DNA of 64,000 nt from Patescibacteria group bacterium (GTDB lineage: Bacteria > Patescibacteriota > Minisyncoccia > CAIUEV01 > JAHKAQ01). Within the stretch, counting starts at the first letter, position 1, and each line of letters starts with the position of its first letter. Location: positions 566-64,565 of the forward strand of contig JAYEHH010000037.1 of NCBI GenBank assembly GCA_034716235.1. The letters run 5' to 3'. Positions 3,093-61,176 of the stretch are shown in pieces. The position numbers were made by a program, and so were the translations under genes. A model generated the notes under the pieces. That model was not told the origin of the DNA and ran no database searches. It worked only from the letters and a program-made list of their open reading frames with translations.

Positions 3093-3272
3093 ATGGATAA
3101 TGGATAATTCACAATGCCACCCAAAGGCTGGTCACCCTCTGGGTGAGATAATGGAGAATTGATAATTTCCCTGTCATTCCCGCGAAAGCGGGAATCCCGG
3201 TACGTCTAGGCAAAACTTTGTCAAAATGATTTTCCTAAATTTGCTCGGGACCCTTGCTAGCACGGGGGTGGT
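3093..3272. repeat. Composite intergenic repeat, right arm flanking fusA, inverted relative to 764-962
   Basis: atggataatggataattcac (heptamers), ccaaaggctggtcaccctctgggtga (module B hairpin), ctgtcattcccgcgaaagcgggaatcccggtacgtctaggcaaaactttgtcaaaatgattttcctaaatttgctcgggaccc (module A). This is the reverse complement of the 764-880 element at roughly 85-90% identity. Confidence 0.75.
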
Positions 3273-15158: not shown

Positions 15159-15974
15159 ATGCCTTTCTGTTACTTCAATAAAAAAATTATTTCTGAGAAA
15201 AAAGCGAGTGTCTCCTTGAGAGATTTAGGATTGCTTCGTGGTTACGGAGTTTTTGAGGTTTTAACATCTCATCAGCAAGAGTTATTTCTTTTTAAAGAGC
15301 ATTTTAAACGTTTACAGAATTCTGCCAAAGAGCTGAGACTCAAACTACCTGTTTCAGAAAAAAAATTAGAGCTTTTAATAAGGAAATTGCTTGTAAAAAA
15401 TAAATTAGCAGAGGCTAGCATTAGGATTGTTTTAACGGGTGGAGTTTCTCAAGATGGAATTACTTTAGGGAAGAAGCCCACTCTTTTTATTTTGGTTAAT
15501 AAAATTCATAGATTCAAAAAATCAAATTATCTTCAAGGGGTAAAGTTAATGACCGTGGATTATCAGCGAGAAATTCCTCGAGCTAAAATTTCCAACTACA
15601 CCAAGGCCATTAAATTGCAAAAAGAAAAAGATAAAAGAGGAGCAATTGAAATTCTGTATACTCACCAAGGTTTAGTTTTAGAAGCATCAACCAGTAGCTT
15701 CTTTATTTTTAAGGGAAACACCCTGATTACTCCCAAGAATAATATCCTGTTAGGCACTGTCAGGGGTTTTATTTTAAAAATTGCTCGGCAAAAATTTAAA
15801 ATTCAGGAAAGAGATTTGCGGTTGGAAGAATTAAAAAAAGCCGACGAGGCCTTTCTCACTGCGACAATTAAAGAAATAATGCCGGTTGTGAAAGTGGATA
15901 ATTTTAATATTGGTGATGGAAAAGTAGGAGAGAATACCAAATGGTTAATGGAGGAATTTAAAAAGAAACAATAA
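15159..15974 (+). CDS. Class IV PLP-dependent aminotransferase (branched-chain/D-amino-acid aminotransferase or aminodeoxychorismate-lyase family)
   Basis: 271 aa; N-terminal LLRGYGVFE motif and overall fold-type IV pattern. It sits where secY would be expected. Confidence 0.55.
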   Translation: MPFCYFNKKIISEKKASVSLRDLGLLRGYGVFEVLTSHQQELFLFKEHFKRLQNSAKELRLKLPVSEKKLELLIRKLLVKNKLAEASIRIVLTGGVSQDGITLGKKPTLFILVNKIHRFKKSNYLQGVKLMTVDYQREIPRAKISNYTKAIKLQKEKDKRGAIEILYTHQGLVLEASTSSFFIFKGNTLITPKNNILLGTVRGFILKIARQKFKIQERDLRLEELKKADEAFLTATIKEIMPVVKVDNFNIGDGKVGENTKWLMEEFKKKQ

Positions 15975-16094: not shown

Positions 16095-16910
16095 CTATTG
16101 TTTCTGTACTAAAATTATAACTTTTTCTCCTTCTAAAATCCTCTCTTTTTTGCCGGGGAAGTCATGAATACTCTCTAACAGATTTTTGTAAGAGTATTGA
16201 AACCCTTCACCTCTTTTGGTACCAGGGTCATTAGTGATAAAGCGTTGTTTTTTCTCGTCATAACCAGTAATTACTAGGGCGTGATATAGTGGTCCGGGTT
16301 GCTTGAAGTAAGGATTAGCCAAAACTCTGCCAGCTACTGGGACTATGATAATAGATCCCTGAGCAAGATATTTTTTTAAATCTTCTAAGAGATAATTTTG
16401 GACCAATTGATATTTGTCTCCATAAAATTCTTGGGCAAGAGTTATTATTTTTTGAGCATCTAAGTCTGTATGAGCTCCGTAATTTTTCTGCTGATAGGCA
16501 ACCATTTTTAAAATTTCAGCTTCTCCTTCCTGTTTAGATAATTTTTTCTCACCCAGTAAATAGTAATGCGCGATAATAATGGCAGCTTCTTCACAGGCCT
16601 CTCCATGGAGATGGTCCCAATTAGCAAAAGGAGCTTGAGGAATGAAAGGAACTGGATTGTTTATTTTTAAAGGGAGAGGATCTGTTGCCTCTGTTGTTTT
16701 TTTGTTTTTTTGGTTGCTTTCAATACTCGTATCTTTTTCTCCTGTAAGCTTGTCTAGCTGAGCAGTATTTTCTTTAATCTCTTTAAAGATTGGGAAATAG
16801 TCTTTAACTAAATTTGATTTCTGGAAAAAATAATAAAATAAACACCCTAAAACAAGAGTACAAACACTGGCGACTAGAACCCATTTAACACACGGTTTAA
16901 TTTTTCCCAT
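16095..16910 (-). CDS. Membrane-anchored C39-like (papain-fold) peptidase domain protein
   Basis: N-terminal TM helix, then QAPFANWDHLHGEACEEAAIIIAHYY (candidate catalytic Cys) and later HALVITGYDE...FITNDPG (His/Asp), as in Peptidase_C39_2-like domains. Confidence 0.45.
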   Translation of the reverse strand: MGKIKPCVKWVLVASVCTLVLGCLFYYFFQKSNLVKDYFPIFKEIKENTAQLDKLTGEKDTSIESNQKNKKTTEATDPLPLKINNPVPFIPQAPFANWDHLHGEACEEAAIIIAHYYLLGEKKLSKQEGEAEILKMVAYQQKNYGAHTDLDAQKIITLAQEFYGDKYQLVQNYLLEDLKKYLAQGSIIIVPVAGRVLANPYFKQPGPLYHALVITGYDEKKQRFITNDPGTKRGEGFQYSYKNLLESIHDFPGKKERILEGEKVIILVQKQ

Positions 16911-17065
16911 AGGAAATTTTAAAGATTTGTTCTTATTTTATAATTTTAGCTTACTTTTCGTCAAAGGAAAACACAGAAAACTGTCTTTGTTTAATTTATT
17001 TTTTCGATTGTTTTAATAAGTGGAGGAGTAGGGTAGATACAGGTTTGTAAAGTTATAAAGTGACT

Positions 17066-17093
17066 TGTCATTCCCGCGAAAGCGGGAATCCCG
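17066..17093. repeat. Module A hairpin repeat core (GTCATTCCCGCGAAAGCGGGAATCCCGG), left flank of the GIY-YIG gene
   Basis: Exact 28-nt core shared with 3171-3200; cccgc-gaaa-gcggg hairpin. Confidence 0.8.
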
Positions 17094-17120
17094 GGAAGCT
17101 ATAGAATCAAACATTAAATC

Positions 17121-17444
17121 ATGAATAAAAACTATTACGTTTATATTGTAACCAATAATAAGAATAGTACTTTCTATATAGGTATCACTAACAATTTAGA
17201 ACGACGTGTCTATGGACATAAACAAGGGATAGTTAAAGGATTTACTAAACAGTATAATCTCAATAAATTAGTATATTTTGAAGAAACAGGAAATGTTATA
17301 TCTGCAATCTCAAGAGAGAAATGTTTAAAAAAATGGAATAGAAAGTGGAAGGTAGAACTTATTGAGAAAGAGAATCCAAAATGGGAAGATTTAACAAACA
17401 AGTTTCTTCTAAAGCATATCGAGATTCCCGCTTCGCTTGTCTAA
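17121..17444 (+). CDS. Small GIY-YIG nuclease domain protein
   Basis: 107 aa; YYVYIVTNNKNSTFYIGITNNLERRVYGH is a textbook GIY-YIG motif; flanked by inverted copies of the module A repeat. Confidence 0.75.
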   Translation: MNKNYYVYIVTNNKNSTFYIGITNNLERRVYGHKQGIVKGFTKQYNLNKLVYFEETGNVISAISREKCLKKWNRKWKVELIEKENPKWEDLTNKFLLKHIEIPASLV

Positions 17445-17514
17445 TGACAGGCAGGTGCCAAGGATAACAAAAGAATAGATTTCTTAATTGAAAATTATTA
17501 TAATGTTTTTAAAA

Positions 17515-17548
17515 CGTACCGGGATTCCCGCTTTCGCGGGAATGACAG
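17515..17548. repeat. Module A repeat core, inverted copy, right flank of GIY-YIG; contains the ATG of the downstream gene
   Basis: cgtaccgggattcccgctttcgcgggaatgacag is the reverse complement of the 17066-17093 core; its terminal gaATGACAG supplies the start codon at 17542. Confidence 0.8.
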
Positions 17549-19812
17549 CAAATTTAACAACCTTCTTAACCTTCATAACTCTCACCCTCTTTTTCTTTCT
17601 CTTCCCTTTCTCCGTCAGAGCAACGGCGATTGATATTACGGAAAATACAACTTGGAATGAAGATCAAGTAGTGGAGGATAGGGTTATTGTCATGGGAGGA
17701 GCAACTTTAACCATTGAACCGGGAGTCCAAATTAAATTTAAGCCAGGAGGTAATTTAAGAATCTATGGAGATTTAATAGTGGAAGGAGAAAAGAATCAAC
17801 CGGTAATTTTCTTTAGAGAAAAACCTAAGCCAGAGGAAGAAAGGTGGATGTATTATTTAACCTTTGGAGCCGATTCTAATTCTGTCATCAAACATGCAAT
17901 CATTAAAGAGGCTGGTGGTTATTCTGACTCAGGCTCTCGAATGCCGGGAATGAAAATTAGGGGTAATTTAGAAATTTACGACAGTTTAATCACTCAAAAT
18001 TATTGGGCATTAGAAGTGAGAGACGATGGGCATTTAAAAATGAGAAATTCTGATATTTATGATAATCATACAACTTGGGGCGTAGAAGTATTGGGTCATT
18101 CTGCCGCCGCCGATATTGTTGATAATTATTGGGGAGATAATTCAGGCCCCTTTCATTCTTCTTTTAATAAATTGGCTACAGGAGAAAGAATCAATGGAGG
18201 CAATCTTGAATTTACACCCTGGGAAACAAGAGGTAAGAAGCCAATCATTCTAATCCCTGGATTTGGAGAATCTTTAAATTTCGGAAAGTTTTTTCAGAAT
18301 CAAGTAGGGAGATGGTGGCTTTTCCCGCCTACCAAATCAACCTCAGCCTTAAAAACTTTGCTAGAGGATGCTGGCTATGAAGATGAAGTAGATTTATTTG
18401 TTGGTTTTTATGACTGGCGGAAATCAATTCATCAAAATGCGACGGATTATTTAAAGCCAATTATAAATTTGGCTAAAGAAAAATCTGGTTTTAAAGAGGT
18501 GGACATTGTTGCTTTTAGTTTCGGTGGGCTTGTTTCCAGAAGCTATGTCCAAGGGAATTCTTTTGGGTTTGATGTAAATAATTTAATAACTTTAGGGACT
18601 CCCCATCAAGGAATTTCAAAAATTTACACTTTTGCAGCAGGCGGTCAGTTGCCAGCTGGCTGGAACCCCTTACTTTACATTTATCTCTGGTATGAACAAA
18701 TAGAGGAAGGTCAATCTGCCTTGGGTTATATCCAAAATTATTTACCATCCGTTTATGAGATAATGCCCACCTATGATTTCTTAAAAATGTCAGGGAGCTT
18801 GATTAATCATCAAGAAATGTCTATCACCAATAATATTTTGCAAGAGTTAAATAATGGAATTGGAGATTTACAAAATAGGGTAGATGCATTCTTTGTCGGA
18901 GGGACCGATCAACTAACCTTAGACAATATTCCAGTAAGACCACATCTACCAAACGATGGAGCATTTTGGCTGGACGGAGCTCCTGACCCAGCAAGACCAG
19001 TACCCAACAGTACTGAAGGAGATGCGACGGTCCTTACCAAAAGTGCTATTTGGGGAGTAGAAGATATTAAAAGCACTTTAATCCAGAGCCAGCATGAAGA
19101 TTTACCGTTAGAAGCAAAAACAGAAATTGAGAATATTTTAGACATTGATTTAGGAGAAACAAACTTTGATTTTAATTATTCGGAGGATTATCTTATTTTT
19201 TGCTTAGCTTCTCCTTTGGAAGTGGAAATCGTGGATCAGGCAGGGCATAGGCTTTCTCGGGAAATAAATGAAATTGAAAATGCTTATTTTTATGAAGAAG
19301 ATCCGTTGGGAAAAAAAATAATTTTAATTTATAATCCGGATACTGAATATTCAATGGAGGTTTCCGGGTTGGCGAACAGTGATTATAGAATTTTAGCAAT
19401 GTCAGCTGATGCTAATAGTGAAATAGTTTCTGCTGAAATTTCTGCAGAGATTGCTCTAGGAGAAAATGTTGAATATTGGGCAAGAAGAGTGGTGACTGAT
19501 ACCGAGGGAAATGAGCAGGGGGATGCGAATGAGTTAAAAATTGAAATTTATGAGAAAATCGTAGCTGACTATAAAGTGCTTGTTGGTCGAGTAAAAGATT
19601 TTTATAAAACTGGATTTTTGAAAAGTTGGGAGGTCAGACAGGAACTTTTAGAAAGAATACTGGCTAGCTATAATTTTTCAAAGAGAGATCAATTAGAAGA
19701 AGAGGGATTAATGATTGAAGATATAAAAGCAAAGGTTATTGAACTAGAAGTAAATGAGCTACTTGATTCCTCGAGTTCCCAATTGTTACTAGATGCCCTA
19801 GATGAGTTCTAA
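17542..19812 (+). CDS. Secreted protein: N-terminal signal peptide, right-handed parallel beta-helix repeats, LCAT/PGAP1-like alpha/beta-hydrolase (phospholipase/lipase) domain
   Basis: Signal peptide MTANLTTFLTFITLTLFFFLFPFSVRA; beta-helix-like repeats (NSDIYDNHTTWGVEV...); hallmark FYDWRKS and AFSFGG (A-x-S-x-G-G nucleophile elbow). Start reassigned from the TTG at 17488 to the ATG at 17542. Confidence 0.6.
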   Translation: MTANLTTFLTFITLTLFFFLFPFSVRATAIDITENTTWNEDQVVEDRVIVMGGATLTIEPGVQIKFKPGGNLRIYGDLIVEGEKNQPVIFFREKPKPEEERWMYYLTFGADSNSVIKHAIIKEAGGYSDSGSRMPGMKIRGNLEIYDSLITQNYWALEVRDDGHLKMRNSDIYDNHTTWGVEVLGHSAAADIVDNYWGDNSGPFHSSFNKLATGERINGGNLEFTPWETRGKKPIILIPGFGESLNFGKFFQNQVGRWWLFPPTKSTSALKTLLEDAGYEDEVDLFVGFYDWRKSIHQNATDYLKPIINLAKEKSGFKEVDIVAFSFGGLVSRSYVQGNSFGFDVNNLITLGTPHQGISKIYTFAAGGQLPAGWNPLLYIYLWYEQIEEGQSALGYIQNYLPSVYEIMPTYDFLKMSGSLINHQEMSITNNILQELNNGIGDLQNRVDAFFVGGTDQLTLDNIPVRPHLPNDGAFWLDGAPDPARPVPNSTEGDATVLTKSAIWGVEDIKSTLIQSQHEDLPLEAKTEIENILDIDLGETNFDFNYSEDYLIFCLASPLEVEIVDQAGHRLSREINEIENAYFYEEDPLGKKIILIYNPDTEYSMEVSGLANSDYRILAMSADANSEIVSAEISAEIALGENVEYWARRVVTDTEGNEQGDANELKIEIYEKIVADYKVLVGRVKDFYKTGFLKSWEVRQELLERILASYNFSKRDQLEEEGLMIEDIKAKVIELEVNELLDSSSSQLLLDALDEF

Positions 19813-19945: not shown

Positions 19946-20161
19946 ATGCAAAAACCATATTACGAAAAACCAAATTTTAAATTATATAAAACAGATAGTT
20001 TAGAGTTTCTAGCACAATTACCAGAAAATTCTATTGATATGATTTTTGCCGATCCTCCCTATTTTCTTTCAAGTGGAAGTTTCACCTGCCACAATGGAAA
20101 AATGGTAAATGTAAAAAAGGGAGATTTTATAATTTTTCGACAAAAGAAACCATGCAATTAA
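19946..20161 (+). pseudogene. N-terminal 71-aa fragment of a DpnA/beta-class N6-adenine (GATC) DNA methyltransferase; truncated, displaced by the downstream gene
   Basis: MQKPYYEKPNFKLYKTDSLEFLAQLPENSIDMIFADPPYFLSSG...VNVKKGDF matches the N-terminus and DPPY motif IV of DpnA-like MTases. The reading frame ends after 71 aa and overlaps the start of the next ORF. Confidence 0.65.
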
Positions 20162-20919
20162 TTTTGAATACAGATTTAGCTACTCAATACAAAAGTCAAT
20201 CTCAGAAAGTTAGAGTTTTGACTGAAAATTGGGTAAAAAATGAGATTTTTTGTCCGAATTGTGGGAATATTATTTCTAAATATCCAAACAATAAGCCAGT
20301 TGGAGATTTCTATTGTTCTGATTGTTTAGAAGATTATGAATTAAAAAGTAAAAAAGATTCAATTGGTAATAAAATTGTTGATGGAGCTTATAAAACAATG
20401 ATTGAAAGATTACAAAGCTCTACAAATCCAAATTTTTTCTTTTTAAACTATAATTTGCATACTTACGAAGTTGTAAATTTTGTTGTTATTCCAAAACATT
20501 TTTTTATTCCAGAAATAATTGAAAAAAGGAGACCCTTATCAGAGAATGCTCGTCGTGCTGGCTGGGTTGGTTGTAGTATTTTATTACAAAGTATTCCTGA
20601 AAGTGGAAAGATTTTCTACATTAAAAATCAACGAAAACAAAAAAAAGAAAAAGTTTTAAAAAATTGGCAAAAGACTTTATTTTTAAGACAACCTCAAGAA
20701 ATAGAATTAAAAGGCTGGATTTTAGATATTATGAAGTGCATTGATAAATTAGGGAAAAAGAAATTTTCGCTCGAAGAAATGTATTCATTTGAGAAAATCT
20801 TATCAGAAAAATATCCTGAGAATAATCATATTAAGGATAAAATAAGACAACAACTCCAGTTTTTAAGAGATGAAGGTTATTTAGATTTTTTATCTCGTGG
20901 TATTTATCGTTTAAAATAA
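20152..20919 (+). CDS. DpnI-like methylation-dependent (G-m6A-TC) type IIM restriction endonuclease: PD-(D/E)XK catalytic domain plus C-terminal winged helix
   Basis: 255 aa. From my memory of the S. pneumoniae DpnI sequence, the blocks match closely: YKSQSQKVRVLTENWV, FCPNCGN, DFYCSDC, ELKSKK, DGAYKTM, NPNFFFLNY, RRAGWVGC, GLFLR, NNHIKDKIRQQLQFLRD. Length is also the same. Confidence 0.75.
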   Translation: MQLILNTDLATQYKSQSQKVRVLTENWVKNEIFCPNCGNIISKYPNNKPVGDFYCSDCLEDYELKSKKDSIGNKIVDGAYKTMIERLQSSTNPNFFFLNYNLHTYEVVNFVVIPKHFFIPEIIEKRRPLSENARRAGWVGCSILLQSIPESGKIFYIKNQRKQKKEKVLKNWQKTLFLRQPQEIELKGWILDIMKCIDKLGKKKFSLEEMYSFEKILSEKYPENNHIKDKIRQQLQFLRDEGYLDFLSRGIYRLK

Positions 20920-20922
20920 AAA

Positions 20923-22218
20923 ATGGAAAAAGAAAAGTTAGCTAAAAAGAAAAAGAAGAAGACTATGTCTTTGTCTTTCCCGAATGATTTTTTTTGGGGA
21001 AGTTCTACTTCGTCTTATCAAGTAGAGGGTGGGAATGTAAATGACTGGAGCCAATGGGAAAAGAAAAATGCTAAAAAATTAGCTCATTCGGCAAAAAGTT
21101 ATTGGAAACCTTGGCAAATAAAAAAATTTCCCCAAATACTTTCTCCAGATAATTATATTTGCGATAAAGCTTGTGATCACTATCATCGCTACGAAGAGGA
21201 CTTTGATTGGATTAAATCCTTACATCAAAATGCCCATCGTCTTTCTATAGAGTGGTCACGAATAGAACCAGCAGAAGGAAGATTTGATAAAAAAGAACTC
21301 CAGCATTATAGGAAAGTGCTAGAGGCTTTAAGGGCGAGAGGAATTGAACCTTTTGTAACTTTGAAACATTATACTAATCCAATCTGGCTTTCTGAAAAGG
21401 GAGGAATAGCGAGCCCAGCTTATCCGCGTTTATTTTCTCGTTATGTTCAAAAAGTGGTTCAAGAATTGGGCGATCTTTGCCAATATTGGATTACGGTGAA
21501 TGAACCGATGGTGATTATTCATAATGCCCATCTAACAAATAATTCTTGGCCCGGAGAAAAAAGCCTTATAAAAGCTCATAAATATTTTACTGCAACGGTT
21601 AAAGCTCACAATATGGCTTATGATTGCATTAAGCAAAAATTTCCCCAGGCTCAGATTGGTGTCGCCAAGCTTTTAAATTCTTGGGAACCGGTCAATAAAA
21701 AATCTTTCCTAGATATGTTAACCGTTAGATTAGCTCGTTATTTTAGCAATGAAAAATTTATCAACGCGATAAAATCTAAATTAGATTTTATAGGAGTAAA
21801 TTATTATTTTCATGATCAATTAAAATTTCCGTATCAACGTGTAACTACAAAAACGAAAGTTTCTGATTTGAATTGGGAAATTTATCCCAAGGGTATCTAT
21901 AAAGTATTGCAGGAAATTAAAAAATATAATCTTCCAATTTATATTACGGAAAATGGCTTAGCGGATGCGAGTGATAAATATAGAGCAGATTTTATTAAGG
22001 AACATCTGTTTTGGATAAATAAAGCCATTCAAGAAAAAATTCCAGTTAAAGGATATTTTCATTGGTCCCTTATGGATAATTTTGAGTGGAATAAAGGTTT
22101 TTGGCCTCGTTTTGGTCTTCTAGAAATAGATTATCACACGCTGACAAGAAAACTTCGTCCTAGTGGTAAAATTTACGCTGAAATTTGTGCTACTAATAAG
22201 CTTAAATTTGATAAATGA
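20923..22218 (+). CDS. Glycoside hydrolase family 1 (beta-glucosidase/beta-galactosidase)
   Basis: FPNDFFWGSSTSSYQVEGG N-terminal signature; TVNEP (acid/base) and YITENG (nucleophile) motifs. Confidence 0.9.
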   Translation: MEKEKLAKKKKKKTMSLSFPNDFFWGSSTSSYQVEGGNVNDWSQWEKKNAKKLAHSAKSYWKPWQIKKFPQILSPDNYICDKACDHYHRYEEDFDWIKSLHQNAHRLSIEWSRIEPAEGRFDKKELQHYRKVLEALRARGIEPFVTLKHYTNPIWLSEKGGIASPAYPRLFSRYVQKVVQELGDLCQYWITVNEPMVIIHNAHLTNNSWPGEKSLIKAHKYFTATVKAHNMAYDCIKQKFPQAQIGVAKLLNSWEPVNKKSFLDMLTVRLARYFSNEKFINAIKSKLDFIGVNYYFHDQLKFPYQRVTTKTKVSDLNWEIYPKGIYKVLQEIKKYNLPIYITENGLADASDKYRADFIKEHLFWINKAIQEKIPVKGYFHWSLMDNFEWNKGFWPRFGLLEIDYHTLTRKLRPSGKIYAEICATNKLKFDK

Positions 22219-23129
22219 TTTTAGGCTTAACAATTGCAATCTTCGCTTATTTTTTAAATGCTATCACAACGATAGTGGATAAGTATTTATTACGACGTTC
22301 TGTCCCCAGTCCGATAAGCTATGGTTTTTACATGGGGATTTTAAGTATTTTTGCTCTTCCGCTTTTTATTTTTGGATTTGAATACCCAGGTTTTCTTTTA
22401 TTACTGTTTGATTTTTTAGCCGGCTTCGTTTTCTTGATTTCCATTTTGCTAATGTATGTTGCTTTGAAGAATGGAGAGGCTTCTAGAGTGATGCCAATTA
22501 TTGGAGGGCTAACCCCGATTCTACTTTATGTTTACGAAACCTTAATCGCCAAGAACCACATTGGCAGTGGGCAACTAGTAGCCTGTAGCCTGTTAATTGC
22601 TGGAAGTATTTTAATCTCAATGAGAATAAAAAATAATAAAAAACATCAGCAACGAATACATTTTGAGAGTTTAGGCATTGCGACTCTCTCTGCTTTTTTC
22701 TTAGCTGGCTATTTTATTTTGATAGATCAAATTTACACAACCCAGGTTTTTATAGCTGGTTTTGTTTGGACTAGAATAGGCAGTTTTTTAGGAGCCCTAT
22801 TATTACTAAGCTTTCAAAAAAATCGAAAGAAAATATTTATTACTACCAAAAAAATAAAATTAACTGTAGCCAGTATTGTAATCTCTAATAAAATTATTGC
22901 TGGGATAGCTTTTATTTTGTTAAATTTAGCTGTAGCTAAATCTTCTGGTTTGATAGTAAATTCATTAAATGGGACGCAATATGTATTTTTGTTCTTAATG
23001 ATTATTATTCTATCGTATAAATATCCTAAAATAATCAAAGAAAAGTTTAATAAATGGGTAATTTGGCAAAAGTCTTTGGCACTTGTTTTGGTTGGGATGG
23101 GATTAGTTCTCCTTTTTATAGCCAATTAG
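22215..23129 (+). CDS. DMT-superfamily (EamA-like) 10-TM transporter
   Basis: Two internal repeats each with a G-x-AS-x-V/I motif (ALKNGEASRVMPIIGG; AVAKSSGLIVNSLNG). Start overlaps the GH1 stop by 4 nt, so the two are probably co-transcribed. Confidence 0.55.
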   Translation: MILGLTIAIFAYFLNAITTIVDKYLLRRSVPSPISYGFYMGILSIFALPLFIFGFEYPGFLLLLFDFLAGFVFLISILLMYVALKNGEASRVMPIIGGLTPILLYVYETLIAKNHIGSGQLVACSLLIAGSILISMRIKNNKKHQQRIHFESLGIATLSAFFLAGYFILIDQIYTTQVFIAGFVWTRIGSFLGALLLLSFQKNRKKIFITTKKIKLTVASIVISNKIIAGIAFILLNLAVAKSSGLIVNSLNGTQYVFLFLMIIILSYKYPKIIKEKFNKWVIWQKSLALVLVGMGLVLLFIAN

Positions 23130-23294: not shown

Positions 23295-24299
23295 ATGTTA
23301 TCTAAAAAAATAAAATTATTCACATTAGTATTAATTTTGGTTTTTGGTAGTGGCCTATTTTTAATGCTCCGTAAGCCTTCAAATTATACGGAAGATATTA
23401 AATGGGGAATTACTTATTCTAAATTTTTTGCAGAAAAAGCAGGGCTTGATTGGCAAAAAACCTACCTTGCTATTTTAGATGACCTGGGAAGTAAAAAGAT
23501 ACGCTTGCCCGTCTATTGGCAATTTGTAGAGCAGAAAGAAGGGGAGTACGACTTTGCAGACCTAGACTGGATGATGGAGGAGGCCGAAAAACGTCAAGTA
23601 GAAATCATTTTAGTTGTTGGAAGAAAAGTACCTCGTTGGCCAGAATGTCATATTCCTGATTGGGCAAGAGAGCTAGATGAATCTGAGCAACAAGCGAAAA
23701 TACTTAAACTTATTGAAGTAGTGGTTAAACGTTATCGAGAGTCTGATAGTCTTGCCGTTTGGCAGATTGAGAATGAACCCTTCTTAGCTTTTGGAGAATG
23801 TCCAGCTCTAGATGTTGACTTTCTTGATCAAGAAATAAAGAAAACAAAGTCATTGGATCCAAAACATCCAATCTTAATTACGGATAGCGGAGAAATGAGT
23901 ATTTGGCTTAGGGCGGCCAAAAGGGGAGATATCTTTGGAACAACCATGTATAGAATAATTTGGAATAAACATTTGAAGTATTTCAAGTATCCTCTACCTC
24001 CAAGGTTTTTCTGGATGAAAGCTAACTTAATAAATTTATTCTATAAAGATAAACCGATAATTGTTTGTGAACTCCAAGGAGAATATTGGGGACCCAAACA
24101 ATCCTATGAAACTCCATTGGCGCTTGAAATGGAACATTATCCCTTGGAAGAATTTCAGCAGAGCTTAGCTTATGCGAAAGCGGTTGGATTTGGTGAAGTT
24201 TATTTGTGGGGAGTAGAATGGTGGTACTGGCTCAAAGAAGAACATGGTGATGCTACCTATTGGGAAGAAGCTAAAACATTACTTCAACAATCAGATTAA
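23295..24299 (+). CDS. Secreted/membrane-anchored TIM-barrel glycoside hydrolase (GH5/GH113-like)
   Basis: N-terminal TM/signal; WQIENEP (NEP acid/base motif); later CELQGEYWG is a candidate nucleophile region. Confidence 0.45.
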   Translation: MLSKKIKLFTLVLILVFGSGLFLMLRKPSNYTEDIKWGITYSKFFAEKAGLDWQKTYLAILDDLGSKKIRLPVYWQFVEQKEGEYDFADLDWMMEEAEKRQVEIILVVGRKVPRWPECHIPDWARELDESEQQAKILKLIEVVVKRYRESDSLAVWQIENEPFLAFGECPALDVDFLDQEIKKTKSLDPKHPILITDSGEMSIWLRAAKRGDIFGTTMYRIIWNKHLKYFKYPLPPRFFWMKANLINLFYKDKPIIVCELQGEYWGPKQSYETPLALEMEHYPLEEFQQSLAYAKAVGFGEVYLWGVEWWYWLKEEHGDATYWEEAKTLLQQSD

Positions 24300-35819: not shown

Positions 35820-35903
35820 GCCGCGGTGGCGGAACTGGTAGACGCGCCAGCTTTAGGAGCTGGTGAGATTTATCTTGTGGGAGTTCAAATCTCCCCCGCG
35901 GCA
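35820..35903 (+). tRNA. tRNA-Leu (anticodon TAG), class II with long variable arm
   Basis: Acceptor GCCGCGG/CCGCGGC, D-arm GCGGAACTGGTAGACGC, anticodon stem CCAGC/GCTGG with loop TTTAGGA (TAG), variable arm TGAGATTTATCTTGT, T-arm GGGAG-TTCAAAT-CTCCC, discriminator A; CCA not encoded. Confidence 0.8.
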
Positions 35904-35907
35904 CCCT

Positions 35908-44456: not shown

Positions 44457-44600
44457 TTGATGGACAATGGATAATGGATGAATATCTTTTTCTAATTTTC
44501 AATTTTATTTGTCATTCCTGTAAAAGTTAGGTAATTCGTTGACAGATATGTCATTCCCGCGTAGGCGGGAATCCAGAAACTAGAATAAAATTTCTGAGAC
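44457..44600. repeat. Composite repeat (GGATAAT/GGACAAT heptamers plus module A variants GTCATTCCTGTAAAAG... and GTCATTCCCGCGTAGGCGGGAATCCAGAAACTAGAATAAAAT)
   Basis: Near-identical to 54125-54180 (gtcattcccgcgaaggcgggaatccagaaactagaataaaatta). Confidence 0.65.
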
Positions 44601-54103: not shown

Positions 54104-54612
54104 AAGTTTATAAAGTTAGAAAGTTAAACTATTAAAGTCATTCCCGCGAAGGCGGGAATCCAGAAACTAGAATAAAATTATCATTGATAAATAATGGATG
54201 GTGATTATCAAAAACACTAGCCTACATAAATTTACTAGAAGAAATAAATATTGTTAAGAATTGGCTTATTGTTATAATGAAATAAAATTGGTGCATTCTA
54301 AATTTCTAGATTCCCGTCCGGCATCCCAGCATCCGCGGGACAGGTTCGCCGGATTGCACTTCCCTACCTCACCTACCTCACCTACCTCACGGCAGACAAG
54401 TGGCAGACAAGTGGCAGACAGGCGCGGGGAATGACAGGGGAAAAAGGCTGACTGGCTTGTCTCGCCGAAGGCTCGCCTAAACTCGGTGAGGCTAGAGGAG
54501 ATCCCGAGCAAATTTAGAAAAAAACTAATTTGGCAAGGCTCTGCCTAGACGTACCGGGATTCCCGCTTTCGCGGGAATGACAGGAATGCAACTTTACAAA
54601 CTTTTAACTATT
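54103..54612. repeat. Composite repeat block (AAAGTT units, module A, module C, CACCTACCT x3 and GGCAGACAAGT x3 microsatellites, module A)
   Basis: gtcattcccgcgaaggcgggaatccagaaactagaataaaatta; cccgtccggcatcccagcatccgcgggacaggttcgccgg; cctcacctacctcacctacctcacggcagacaagtggcagacaagtggcagaca; ...gtctagacgtaccgggattcccgctttcgcgggaatgacagg (near-identical to 828-866). Confidence 0.7.
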
Positions 54613-58566: not shown

Positions 58567-58917
58567 ATGTTGAGGTATAGAAATTTTAAGGTCTATAAAG
58601 ACGCAAAAGATTTTCATAAATTAACGGTTAAACTAGCTTCTCAATTTTCTGGAGGCTTCAATTATTTAAGTAACCAGATCCGGAGAAGTTCACTATCGGT
58701 TGTACTGAATATTGCCGAGGGATCGGCAAAGGGTTCAGATAAAGATTTTAATTGTTATTTAAAAAACTCATTGGGCTCAATGAGTGAAACTTTAGCAGGA
58801 TTTGAAATTGCTTTAGAGTTTCAATTAATTTCTCTTTCAGATTTTGAAAATATTGAGGCTAAGGCTAAAAGTATTATTAAACAACTGGGAGGTTTTTCAA
58901 AAAAGTTAAAAGGTTAA
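58567..58917 (+). CDS. Four-helix-bundle 'rRNA intervening-sequence (IVS) protein' encoded inside the first 16S insertion
   Basis: 116 aa. KDAKDFHKLTVKLASQF...SNQIRRSSLSVVLNIAEGSAKGSDKDFNCYLKNSLGSMSETLAGFEIA matches the family normally found in 23S IVS elements (RRS/A-x-SI/V-x-NIAEG; ...GS..E...L). Confidence 0.7.
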   Translation: MLRYRNFKVYKDAKDFHKLTVKLASQFSGGFNYLSNQIRRSSLSVVLNIAEGSAKGSDKDFNCYLKNSLGSMSETLAGFEIALEFQLISLSDFENIEAKAKSIIKQLGGFSKKLKG

Positions 58918-59068
58918 TAGTTAGAAGTTGGTAGTTGCGTAGCGGCAAACGGGTTAGTAACACGTGAGAATCTACCCTAAAGTTTGGAATAACTCGGAGA
59001 AATCCGAGATAATACCAAATATGTTCTTCGGAGTAAAGCCTTCGGGCGCTTTAGGAGGAGCTCGCGTA

Positions 59069-59105
<37 letters not shown>

Positions 59106-59165
59106 TATGACGGTTAGGGAGCGTGAGAGCGTGATTCCCAACATTGGCACTGAAACACTGGCCAA

Positions 59166-59196
<31 letters not shown>

Positions 59197-59763
59197 CCAC
59201 AATGGGGGAAACCCTGATGGAGCGACGTTGCGTGCGGGATGACGGCCTTCGGGTTGTAAACCGCTTTTGTAGGAGATGAATACGCTCAACTTTTTTGATT
59301 TTATTTTTGATTATGTTTTTTATAATTAATAGAATTAAAAAACTTGGGCGTATGACAGTATCCTTTCGAATAAGAGGTTGCTAACTCTGTGCCAGCAGCA
59401 GCGGTGATACAGAGACCTCGAGCGTTGTCCGGATTTATTGGGCGTAAAGGGTTCGTAGGGGGTTTGAAGGGTTTCAAGTAAAATCTTAAGGCTCAACCTT
59501 GAGTTGGCTTGAAAAACTAGCAAACTAGAGCATACCAGAGGTGTTTAGAACTCATGGTGTAGGAGTGAAATCCGTTGAGATCATGGGGAATACCAAAGGC
59601 GAAGGCATAACACTAGGGTATTGCTGACCCTGAGGGACGAAAGCGTGGGGAGCGAAATGGATTAGATACCCATGTAGTCCACGCTGTAAACGATGAGCGC
59701 TAGATATTTGAGGCTTCGACCCCTTGAGTGTCACAGCTAACGCATTAAGCGCTCCGCCTGGGA

Positions 59764-59795
<32 letters not shown>

Positions 59796-59914
59796 AGACG
59801 GGGATCCGCACAAGCGGTGGAGCGTCCGGTTTAATTCGATAATAAGCGTGGAACCTTACCAGGACTTGACATCCCACGATAGCTTTAGAAATAAAGTTTC
59901 CTTCGGGCGTGGTG

Positions 59915-59945
<31 letters not shown>

Positions 59946-60257
59946 CTGTGAAGTGTTCCGTTAAGTCGGGAAACGAGCGCAACCCTTGTCATGTGTTAAA
60001 TTTCTCACATGATACTGCTCGGGTTAACCGAGAGGAAGGCAGGGATGACGTCAAATCAGCATGGCCCTTATGTCCTGGGCTACACGGGCGCTACAATGGC
60101 AAATACAAAGGGTAGCCAAGTCGTAAGACGGAGCTAATCCTCCAAAGTTTGTCTTAGTTCGGATTGAAGGCTGCAACTCGCCTTCATGAAGCTGGAATCG
60201 CTAGTAATCGTGAATCAGCCACGTCACGGTGAATATGTTCCCGGATCTTGTACTCAC

Positions 60258-61176
60258 AATAAAAGCGCCAGGCAGTTTAATAATCCAGAGAGTTAAAATC
60301 TCTCCCTCTGTTCGTCGCAGAGCGTAATAGAAAGATAGGCCTTAAACCGCGAGGTTGAGGCTGAAGGATCTTAAAATAAACTGCAGTCAGATATTTTCAC
60401 AGGCAGTATTGACCCTTGATTGGGCGGTGAGCATGGGGAAAATACGCTAAAAATGCCTATCTGAATGCAGGGAACGGAGTATTAAATAACCCTGGGAGAT
60501 CTTATATTGTCCCACCCAAATTTTTAGTGACTAATAAAAATTGTTATATATTTATTATATGATGAGTAGTCACCATAAATTTGGGCGGGTAATGAAACTT
60601 AAGCAATGTAAGAAGTCAGCTGAGTCATAGTAACTTTCAATGCTATATTGAAACGAAGGACTCATTTTAATGTTATGAAGAAAATAAATTTCGACTATAT
60701 CGTTGGATTGGTAGATGGAGAAGGAAGTTTTACGGTTTATGTAAAAAATCCCTATCTATTGAAAAAAGTAAAGCGTCGATCCAAGGTAGAACCAAGATTT
60801 TATCTTAAGCTTATAGACAAAGATAAAGAGAGTCTCTATAAGCTAAAAGAATTTTTTGGGTGCGGAAATGTTTATTTTCAAAGAGATAGAAGAGCCAACC
60901 ATAGAAATTGTTATCGGTATGAAGTAGTAGCAAGGCAAAATTTGCAGAAGATTATAATACCTTTTTTCAAGAAACATGAATTGAGATTGAGATCAAAGGC
61001 TTATGATTTTAAAATTTTCTGTAAAATAATGGAAAAAATAATAAGGAAAGAACATTTAACTCAAAATGGTTTGGAAAGAATATTCTTCTTGAAGATGAAA
61101 ATGCATTAGAACTCGTCGTATGCGGGAAATCCGCAGGTACGATGGGAACGTCAATGCCAAGTTTCTGGCAGATAAT
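60258..61176 (+). mobile_element. Intron-like insertion (~919 nt) in the 16S 3' domain at about E. coli position 1399/1400, carrying a homing-endonuclease ORF
   Basis: The conserved TGTAC(A/T)CAC and CGCCCGTCACACC halves of the 1390-1410 region are split by 0.9 kb; boundaries are approximate (+/- a few nt). Confidence 0.65.
60648..61109 (+). CDS. Single-motif LAGLIDADG homing endonuclease
   Basis: 153 aa; FDYIVGLVDGEGSFTV (LAGLIDADG motif), ...FFGCGNVYFQRD... typical family architecture. Confidence 0.85.
   Translation: MKRRTHFNVMKKINFDYIVGLVDGEGSFTVYVKNPYLLKKVKRRSKVEPRFYLKLIDKDKESLYKLKEFFGCGNVYFQRDRRANHRNCYRYEVVARQNLQKIIIPFFKKHELRLRSKAYDFKIFCKIMEKIIRKEHLTQNGLERIFFLKMKMH

Follow-up and report, generated by a model that had tools for sequence, protein, structure and literature searches.

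Patescibacteria (candidate phyla radiation, CPR) have no lipid biosynthesis, yet their membranes consist of ordinary acyl lipids; lysolipids are enriched in CPR, and phospholipase A action on neighbors has been suggested as their source (Probst 2020; PMC7242380). No mechanism for the breakdown or uptake of lipids by CPR has been identified (PMC11665869). Elsewhere, the secreted enzymes BlEst2 of Bacillus licheniformis (6WPX/6WPY) and EstA3 of Thermoanaerobacter have a C-terminal β-sandwich to which, depending on the study, long acyl chain binding or proenzyme inhibition is attributed, and PF13529 or 3ERV-like domains are known components of mycobacteriophage LysA, the N5 domain of which is assigned to the 3ERV-like class. 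Here we describe two divergent genes in 64,000 nucleotides (nt) of DNA from a Patescibacteria group bacterium (GCA_034716235.1, contig JAYEHH010000037.1, positions 566 to 64,565; herein the window). One (17542 through 19812) encodes a putative exported esterase with a β-helix, and the other (16095 through 16910) a C39-like peptidase with a predicted membrane anchor. A literature search returned no account of either family in CPR.

We hold it somewhat probable that these are two separate extracytoplasmic enzymes, a lipid acyl-esterase and a peptidase of the cell's own wall, that are neighbors in one clade of Patescibacteria. The esterase would be exported through Sec and its leader cleaved; Ser326, in an AFSFGG elbow, would be activated by His518 and Asp494 for serine acyl-ester hydrolysis, with lipid acyl esters as the likeliest substrates; the enzyme would be a phospholipase A, a lysophospholipase or a lipase, and might transacylate as well. 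The β-helix probably keeps the enzyme on a glycan-rich surface, and the β-sandwich, as in BlEst2, may serve in acyl chain binding or cover the active site. The enzyme would then free fatty acids or lysolipids from external or neighboring-cell lipids, a role that is most plausible because Patescibacteria are generally unable to make their own lipids. The peptidase would hold a papain-fold domain outside the membrane on a single N-terminal transmembrane (TM) helix and a flexible linker of ∼47 residues; the most likely targets of this Cys106/His210/Asp228 domain are peptide or isopeptide bonds of the producer's own wall. Both proteins are new members of known enzyme superfamilies, with ordinary fold and chemistry, and "phospholipase" is a reasonable guess for the esterase, which may also be a lipase, another esterase, an acyltransferase or an esterase of polyesters or polysaccharides. 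The esterase is a concrete, clonable candidate for the missing lipid-breakdown step of Patescibacteria, and the peptidase family is among their better-conserved extracytoplasmic enzyme families.

The putative exported esterase

The features of the esterase are listed below; residue numbers count from the ATG at 17542, and structural features refer to the AlphaFold2 (AF2) model, for which the predicted local distance difference test (pLDDT) is 88.9.

17542–19812, + strand: esterase gene, 756 amino acids (aa) from ATG 17542 (open reading frame [ORF] list)
17542–17622, + strand: predicted signal peptide, aa 1–27, predicted cleavage VRA/TA (read from the sequence)
17623–18225, + strand: predicted short right-handed parallel β-helix, aa 28–228 (short strands throughout in AF2)
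18124, + strand: NYWGDNSGP, closing the β-helix, conserved as NYWGDxSGP
18235–19146, + strand: α/β-hydrolase domain, aa 232–535 (Pfam, invariant columns, profile against the Protein Data Bank [PDB], Foldseek)
aa 239–244, + strand: PGFGES, in the hydrolase domain
18409–18420, + strand: YDWR, aa 290–293 (Y290, W292 and R293 invariant)
18511–18528, + strand: AFSFGG elbow, aa 324–329, holding the predicted nucleophile
18517–18519, + strand: Ser326, predicted nucleophile, invariant in a 33-sequence alignment
19021–19023, + strand: Asp494 (GDATV), invariant in the same alignment
19093–19095, + strand: His518, invariant in the same alignment
19183–19557, + strand: C-terminal β-sandwich, aa 548–672 (AF2), which travels with the catalytic domain across the family
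19570–19806, + strand: C-terminal four-helix bundle, aa 677–755 (AF2)

A preliminary description made from the DNA letters had proposed a cleavable signal peptide, a parallel β-helix and an α/β-hydrolase with YDWR and A-x-S-x-G-G motifs, and this architecture is borne out by the sequence, Pfam, the AF2 model and the domains of homologs. The Ser/Asp/His triad (S326, D494, H518) is invariant in the 33 sequences, as are P234 and P239, and the model, computed from an alignment (predicted TM-score 0.81), contains the α/β core on which the proposal depended. It comprises a leader helix of low pLDDT, an all-β part (30 through 220), the α/β core (232 through 535), the β-sandwich (550 through 671) and the helical bundle (677 through 755); a helical insertion at about residues 355 through 447 lies at the place of lipase caps.

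Three Pfam families match the hydrolase domain above their gathering scores (Palm_thioest, 8e-10; LCAT, 8e-8; PGAP1, 2e-6). The matches overlap, and each is partial and centered on the nucleophile: the LCAT model (PF02450) scores 32.4 bits against a cut-off of 21 over model positions 75 through 215 of 392 only, and Palm_thioest outscores it (39.3 bits) on the overlapping stretch. NCBIfam gave zero matches for the esterase and for the peptidase, and a PHROGs scan gave no lipase family for the esterase. When the esterase profile is compared with PDB sequences, LPLA2 (3.2e-12) and LCAT (5e-12) rank top, with alignments that cover the PVIxxPG, YDWR, AHSMGG, LGTPxG and GDGTV Asp motifs; 4r1d (1e-10), Bacillus subtilis LipA, family I lipases, PGAP1 and PhaZ7 follow. 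Comparison of folds with Foldseek places BlEst2 first (1.4e-9), then LPLA2 (1.2e-7) and LCAT (4e-6), with family I lipases, PhaZ7 and PlaB further down; E values for LPLA2, LCAT and many lipases lie between 1e-9 and 1e-4. The nearest relatives therefore differ by measure, being LPLA2 and LCAT by sequence profile and BlEst2 by fold.

The esterase is an exported bacterial member of the lipase / LCAT-LPLA2 / PGAP1 cluster. We call it LCAT-like rather than a full member of the LCAT family because the catalytic motifs are common to both, but the LCAT segment between the PG strand and YDWR is absent (the distance from PGFGES to YDWR is 45 residues), there is one Cys (C554) and extra modules are present; with a single Cys, the disulfides of LCAT and LPLA2 are impossible. 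The LCAT-type motifs named in the preliminary description are present. LCAT and LPLA2 both catalyze transacylation. As they are the best profile matches and CPR membranes are lysolipid-rich, the esterase could be mainly an LCAT/PDAT-like acyltransferase that, by shifting acyl chains from lipid to lipid, remodels the producer's own scavenged membrane lipids at the surface. We regard this as very unlikely, given a cleavable leader with no membrane anchor and the absence of the LCAT/LPLA2 segment noted above.

Both the esterase and the peptidase have identical counterparts among NCBI proteins. For the esterase, NCBI calls this protein (P0001) at 769 aa, starting from the ATG at 17503, and a TTG at 17488 offers a further alternative. 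The start at 17542 is in doubt because this ATG sits within a repeated hairpin element (see below), and the true start may be 17503 or 17488 instead. Hydrophobic windows occur solely at aa 2 through 30, and the leader ends in V25-R26-A27, followed by T28; in six orthologs position −1 is small and position −3 small or uncharged (VKA, ADA, ARA, VSA, CWA, TKA). A positively charged n-region is present only with a start at 17503 or 17488. From this n/h/c-type organization we infer that the esterase is exported by a Sec leader and cleaved. As a separate observation, the 3′ copy of the hairpin encodes the peptide GIPAFAGMT, and a 76%-identical homolog (P0002) has the same N terminus.

The N-terminal domain of the esterase itself matches PF13229 below threshold (E 0.002 to 0.06; best 18.3 bits against a cut-off of 25.9). 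Among 14 aligned homologous N-terminal domains, 10 match PF13229 (best 9e-20) and 3 match NosD; in the PDB, a profile of the domain picks out NosD (7o0y, 8e-4), together with the mannuronan epimerase AlgE4 and an alginate lyase. On this evidence and the AF2 model we accept it as a predicted short right-handed β-helix. In the C-terminal β-sandwich, Y603 is invariant and P558, I596 and G609 are nearly so (33-sequence alignment). The helices of the terminal bundle span residues 677 through 689, 696 through 714, 718 through 737 and 743 through 755 in the AF2 model, and similar helical tails are present in many homologs.

HMMER, run exhaustively over 1.84 billion representative proteins, returned 268 clusters at E ≤ 1e-30, 2,401 at E ≤ 1e-10 and 6,699 at E ≤ 1e-3; some of the weaker matches arise via the β-helix repeats of giant proteins. 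We examined 220 retrieved homologs with the nucleophile motif for leader and architecture. An N-terminal hydrophobic leader together with an accessory domain occurs in 162 (median length 846 aa, nucleophile near residue 353); the remaining 58 are leaderless, ∼580 aa long, and begin directly with the hydrolase. In species-representative genomes, long matches are found in Saccharibacteria, Moranbacteria, Collierbacteria, Paceibacterota and Giovannonibacteria, and outside CPR in Chloroflexaceae and Halobacillus locisalis, where the forms are leaderless; short matches to the nucleophile elbow are spread over many free-living phyla and DPANN archaea. It follows that the catalytic core is not CPR-specific. 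The trait typical of CPR is export combined with variable N-terminal domains of surface type.

The putative membrane-anchored peptidase

The peptidase is encoded on the opposite strand, with the following features; conservation refers to an alignment of 38 sequences.

16095–16910, − strand: PF13529 (C39-like) cysteine peptidase gene, 271 aa (ORF; NCBI name "C39 family peptidase")
16812–16895, − strand: predicted TM anchor, aa 6–33 (hydropathy; AF2 helix 6–33)
16671–16811, − strand: low-complexity linker, aa 34–80 (disordered in AF2, pLDDT 47–57; gappy, poorly conserved, variable in length)
16107–16667, − strand: papain-fold catalytic domain, aa 82–268 (conserved columns; Foldseek)
16593–16595, − strand: Cys106 (EACEEA), invariant
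16281–16283, − strand: His210 (YHALV), invariant
16227–16229, − strand: Asp228 (TNDPGT), N227 and D228 conserved at ≥90%

The preliminary description had recognized a TM-anchored, papain-fold C39-like peptidase, and all parts of that assignment hold. The match to PF13529 (Peptidase_C39_2) extends along the entire model (5.9e-11; score 43.6 bits, cut-off 24; positions 3 through 142 of 143), the TM helix spans residues 6 through 33, and C106 and H210 are invariant, as is Gln92. Lys residues at positions 3, 5 and 9 precede the helix, so the catalytic domain is predicted to face outward. With the AF2 model (pLDDT 89.1), Foldseek finds Alr0975 (1.3e-6), 3ERV (5.6e-6, third), the pseudomurein endoisopeptidase PeiR (7e-5) and cathepsins in the PDB, with one uncharacterized entry also among the best matches; in BFVD the named top matches are phage endolysins or lysozymes (1.6e-7 to 6e-6), and two unnamed entries at about 2e-8 score better. 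Searches of PDB sequences with the single sequence and with a profile gave nothing meaningful. PF03412 does not match the peptidase at E ≤ 0.1, and PF05023 (phytochelatin synthase-like, C83) gives no Pfam match, the likeness to that family being structural only (identity to Alr0975, 12 to 14%).

Two other features of the N-terminal part were considered and set aside. The sequence LVLGC fits a lipobox and would make Cys23 a lipoprotein signal; the Cys is absent from close homologs and the hydrophobic helix runs on beyond it. The sole PHROGs match of the peptidase, of its TM helix and linker to a spanin-like family, is weak, and we judge it spurious.

Homologs of the peptidase form >1,335 clusters at 90% identity, and those with a name are nearly all from Patescibacteria; identity to the window protein is 40 to 60% across candidate phyla, and the closest named relatives are metagenome-assembled genomes of Moranbacteria. 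The multi-pass membrane domain VanZ occurs in 11 of the 120 best matches; in four aligned fusions it is N-terminal of the peptidase and replaces the single anchor of other members. We surveyed the neighbors of the peptidase gene at 45 unrelated metagenomic loci. An EamA-type transporter recurs at 8, Hsp20 at 6, a TM-anchored GH5-like protein, a DHH phosphoesterase and MurD at 5 each, and MurB at 4; a YkuD L,D-transpeptidase lies immediately upstream (−1) at 5 of the 45 (for example, locus L008; L-numbers are our locus labels). The overall context is the cell envelope. Because of the conservation, the membrane tethering, the VanZ fusions, this envelope context and the endolysin-like fold, the most economical reading is that the substrate would lie in the cell's own wall, either peptidoglycan stems or wall-linked proteins.

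A different function is suggested by the top PDB fold match, Alr0975, and by the relation of PF13529 to C39 leader peptidases: the enzyme could process proteins or peptides, acting on a leader or propeptide or as a γ-glutamyl peptide transpeptidase in the manner of phytochelatin-synthase homologs, and in this clade, where the pair is conserved, might mature the esterase by removing its C-terminal domains. The title of PDB entry 6WPX speaks of a propeptide form of BlEst2 inhibited by C-terminal domains, which would fit such a step. We think this distinctly unlikely. More than 1,000 lineages carry the peptidase without a nearby esterase, and the families PF03412 and PF05023 fail to match. No ATP-binding cassette (ABC) exporter lies by the peptidase gene in the window, at L001, L003, L007 or L008, or among the recurrent neighbors of the 45 loci, and no bacteriocin-like or double-glycine peptide genes adjoin it at the loci examined.

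The gene pair, its neighbors and the competing readings

In the window, the peptidase and esterase genes are separated by a small GIY-YIG gene that is bracketed by hairpins:

17067–17546: apparent inserted element, a GIY-YIG gene bracketed by inverted hairpin repeats
17121–17444: GIY-YIG gene (Pfam GIY-YIG, 1e-16)
17067–17091 and 17522–17546: inverted hairpin repeats of 25–28 nt; the 3′ copy overlaps the esterase ATG
840–864, 3173–3197, 17067–17091, 17522–17546, 44550–44574, 54137–54161 and 54557–54581: hairpin copies in the window

The description of the two genes as divergent neighbors is thus correct in orientation, but with the 324-nt GIY-YIG gene between them they are not immediate neighbors in the window; in relatives, 87 to 138 bp separate them. 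The hairpin, GTCATTCCCGCGAAAGCGGGAATCC, resembles repetitive extragenic palindromes (8-bp stem, GAAA loop, −14.9 kcal/mol) and is present in seven copies, against a chance expectation of 0. The GIY-YIG/hairpin element is missing at the syntenic loci L001 and L003. It looks like a small mobile element that has remodeled the 5′ end of the esterase gene. Promoter and terminator sites predicted in the intergenic region do not exceed the number expected by chance. Elsewhere in the window, a second inverted hairpin pair (54137 through 54581) encloses ∼400 bp with no convincing ORF and no Rfam match; this may be a decayed copy of the same element.

The peptidase–esterase pair is kept in five genomes: that of the window, L001/L002 (hydrolase identity to the window 60%), L170 (61%; the contig ends within the peptidase gene), L169 (44%) and L003/L004 (40%). 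Downstream genes vary among these five. Throughout the clade the surrounding region is collinear, and the esterase is among its faster-evolving genes, with identities of 60% and 41% versus 61 to 85% and 50 to 72% for ribosomal proteins. Beyond this clade the association is not seen: no peptidase lies near the hydrolase at L005, L006 or L171 (∼30% identity), none of the hydrolase loci L009 through L088 has one, and a hydrolase homolog lies within 6 kb of the peptidase at 0 of 80 other peptidase loci. A widely conserved two-gene system of peptidase and esterase was considered and rejected, since adjacency is lost outside the one clade. The adjacency is lineage-specific and does not argue for a conserved two-component system; within the clade the pair may be co-regulated.

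These data bear on the proposal in the preliminary description that the pair serves in host interaction. The strongest form would be a host-attack toolkit of an epibiont, in which the peptidase would breach the host wall for the β-helix lipase to attack the host membrane, a division of labor like that of LysA and LysB of mycobacteriophages. Its appeal lies in the retention, by five genomes with differing flanks and hydrolase identities as low as 40%, of two divergent genes that share a short intergenic stretch, in the extracytoplasmic location predicted for both products, in the match of the peptidase fold to phage endolysins, and in the match of the esterase profile to 4r1d, an entry that the type VI secretion literature cites for the antibacterial lipase Tle4. 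We nevertheless consider it improbable. A TM helix, or VanZ in some relatives, fixes the peptidase to the producer's membrane; the peptidase is conserved across Patescibacteria like a housekeeping gene, and in other lineages it lies near YkuD, MurB and MurD. The pairing is confined to one clade, as the 80 peptidase loci and the distant hydrolase loci indicate, and the hydrolase is not CPR-specific. Given the clade-wide collinearity, the adjacency may also be mere inherited gene order. The proposal of paired effectors is therefore not upheld: for the peptidase a host-effector role is unlikely, and for the esterase it is a matter of speculation.

Several observations weigh against our preferred reading of a lipid acyl-esterase beside an own-wall peptidase. 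On the side of the peptidase, the PDB fold ranked first is that of a phytochelatin-synthase-like enzyme that cleaves glutathione and not that of a wall hydrolase, PHROGs gave no lysin match, and no neighbor dominates its surroundings (maximum 8 of 45 loci). On the side of the esterase, family assignment is ambiguous because the three Pfam matches span just 55 to 148 residues at the nucleophile, and a family as patchy as this one (268 clusters at E ≤ 1e-30) cannot be a general route of lipid acquisition in CPR. The polyhydroxybutyrate (PHB) depolymerase PhaZ7 and the glycosylphosphatidylinositol deacylase PGAP1 are among its matches. Finally, a distant homolog, P0008 (30% identity; L006, 6001 through 8568), lies inside a glycosyltransferase/epimerase cluster, between an ABC-2 permease and, three genes on, an ABC ATPase; from this setting one may suspect that the substrate belongs to the producer's surface polymer or its lipid anchor, rather than being foreign lipid.

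The last of these observations lead to the alternative that the esterase acts on an O-acylated polysaccharide or peptidoglycan, on a polyester such as PHB or on a lipid-anchored glycopolymer, with the β-helix binding the polymer. Besides PhaZ7, PGAP1 and the placement of P0008, it draws on β-helices of the NosD, alginate-lyase and AlgE type, which typically bind or process polysaccharides, and on the sugar and envelope genes near the pair in the window (GH1, EamA, GH5-like, ROK, PMT_2). We consider it unlikely: the strongest profile matches act on phospholipids or lipids and share YDWR and GDGTV, and the fold ranked first belongs to a lipase that has this C-terminal sandwich too. In a bolder version of the lipid esterase, which we likewise consider unlikely, exported β-helix-bearing LCAT/LPLA2-like esterases, with hundreds of clusters in Patescibacteria, would supply the missing lipid breakdown of these lipid-auxotrophic epibionts: docked by its β-helix on the glycans of a neighboring cell, the enzyme would act as a phospholipase A and set free lysolipids and fatty acids for incorporation by CPR cells, and in this clade it would form with the peptidase an envelope-opening pair.

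The flanking genes and other features of the window are:

15159–15974: class IV aminotransferase, between rplO and the peptidase gene
19946–20161: DNA methyltransferase remnant, 71 aa, with DPPY, preceding the DpnI-like gene
20152–20919: DpnI-like methyl-directed restriction endonuclease (Pfam DpnI 1e-82, plus DpnI_C)
22215–23129: EamA-type transporter, preceding the GH5-like gene
23295–24299: GH5-like protein gene, after the EamA gene
35820–35905: tRNA-Leu
58832–60309: 16S rRNA gene, complete, bacterial (Rfam, 1183 bits)

Upstream of the region, rplO (14597 through 15052) ends a ribosomal protein operon. From 15159 onward the order is aminotransferase, peptidase (− strand), GIY-YIG gene, esterase, methyltransferase remnant and DpnI-like gene, and further downstream GH1, EamA, the GH5-like gene, ROK, a conserved 774-aa ORF and a PMT_2 glycosyltransferase. 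In the clade (window, L001, L003, L169), rplO is followed by the class IV aminotransferase, which is absent in L003, and then by the peptidase; rplO lacks the secY-adk-map successor usual in most bacteria. The DpnI-like gene and the methyltransferase remnant are absent from L001, where GH1 directly adjoins the esterase, and a restriction cassette may have been inserted or swapped here. For the 774-aa ORF (within 25285 through 29524) no Pfam family is recorded in relatives; at 70% (L001) and 58% (L003) identity it is better conserved than the esterase. A PMT_2-type glycosyltransferase follows it in the window, L001, L003 and L169, and the two may be an uncharacterized envelope glycosylation pair. 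The EamA and GH5-like families also recur by a C39_2 peptidase and a YkuD L,D-transpeptidase at unrelated CPR metagenome loci (L089 through L168), where the GH5-like representative is TM-anchored; this suggests an old, loosely conserved envelope gene neighborhood of EamA, GH5-like protein, peptidase and YkuD.

Comparison with known enzymes

The peptidase shares its papain fold and Pfam clan with the bacteriocin-processing peptidases of family C39 (PF03412), but differs from family C39 proper: PF03412 does not match it, an ABC exporter is neither fused to it nor encoded next to it, and double-glycine peptide genes are missing from its surroundings. Alr0975, a phytochelatin-synthase-like C83 enzyme of Nostoc (TM-score 0.59), and PeiR have the same papain-like arrangement of Cys, His and Asp, whereas their identity to the peptidase is 12 to 18% and their substrates are glutathione and pseudomurein. 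The closest class is that of PF13529 and 3ERV-like domains, represented by 3ERV itself from Bacillus anthracis, the N5 domain of mycobacteriophage LysA and other phage endolysin domains. Unlike the phage endolysins, the peptidase is chromosomal, is found across Patescibacteria, has a TM anchor and linker and lies outside any lysis cassette.

For the esterase, Tle4/TplE, an antibacterial lipase of Pseudomonas aeruginosa's type VI secretion system (T6SS), provides a precedent for use of this lipase cluster against neighboring bacteria. Patescibacteria are not known to have a T6SS; Tle4 relies on T6SS delivery and an immunity protein, whereas the esterase has a predicted Sec leader and no immunity-like neighbor was seen. 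The profile match (1e-10) lies around the nucleophile and is to 4R1D, which T6SS papers cite together with Tle4/TplE. BlEst2 and EstA3 resemble the esterase in being secreted and in the order of a catalytic α/β domain followed by a C-terminal β-sandwich; sequence likeness is confined to the nucleophile region (3e-5), and they have neither β-helix nor helical bundle.

The catalytic domain itself is most like LPLA2 (group XV phospholipase A2) and LCAT, with which it shares the PG, YDWR, nucleophile elbow, LGxPxGG and GDGTV Asp motifs. The order and spacing of Ser, Asp and His are similar, and a helical insertion follows the post-nucleophile strand in both. About 55 residues of LCAT between PG and YDWR, which we take to be its membrane-binding domain, have no counterpart in the esterase. 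Compared with LCAT and LPLA2, the Patescibacteria enzyme is bacterial and, by its leader, probably Sec-exported, and it adds a predicted β-helix, a β-sandwich and a helical bundle to the common catalytic core.

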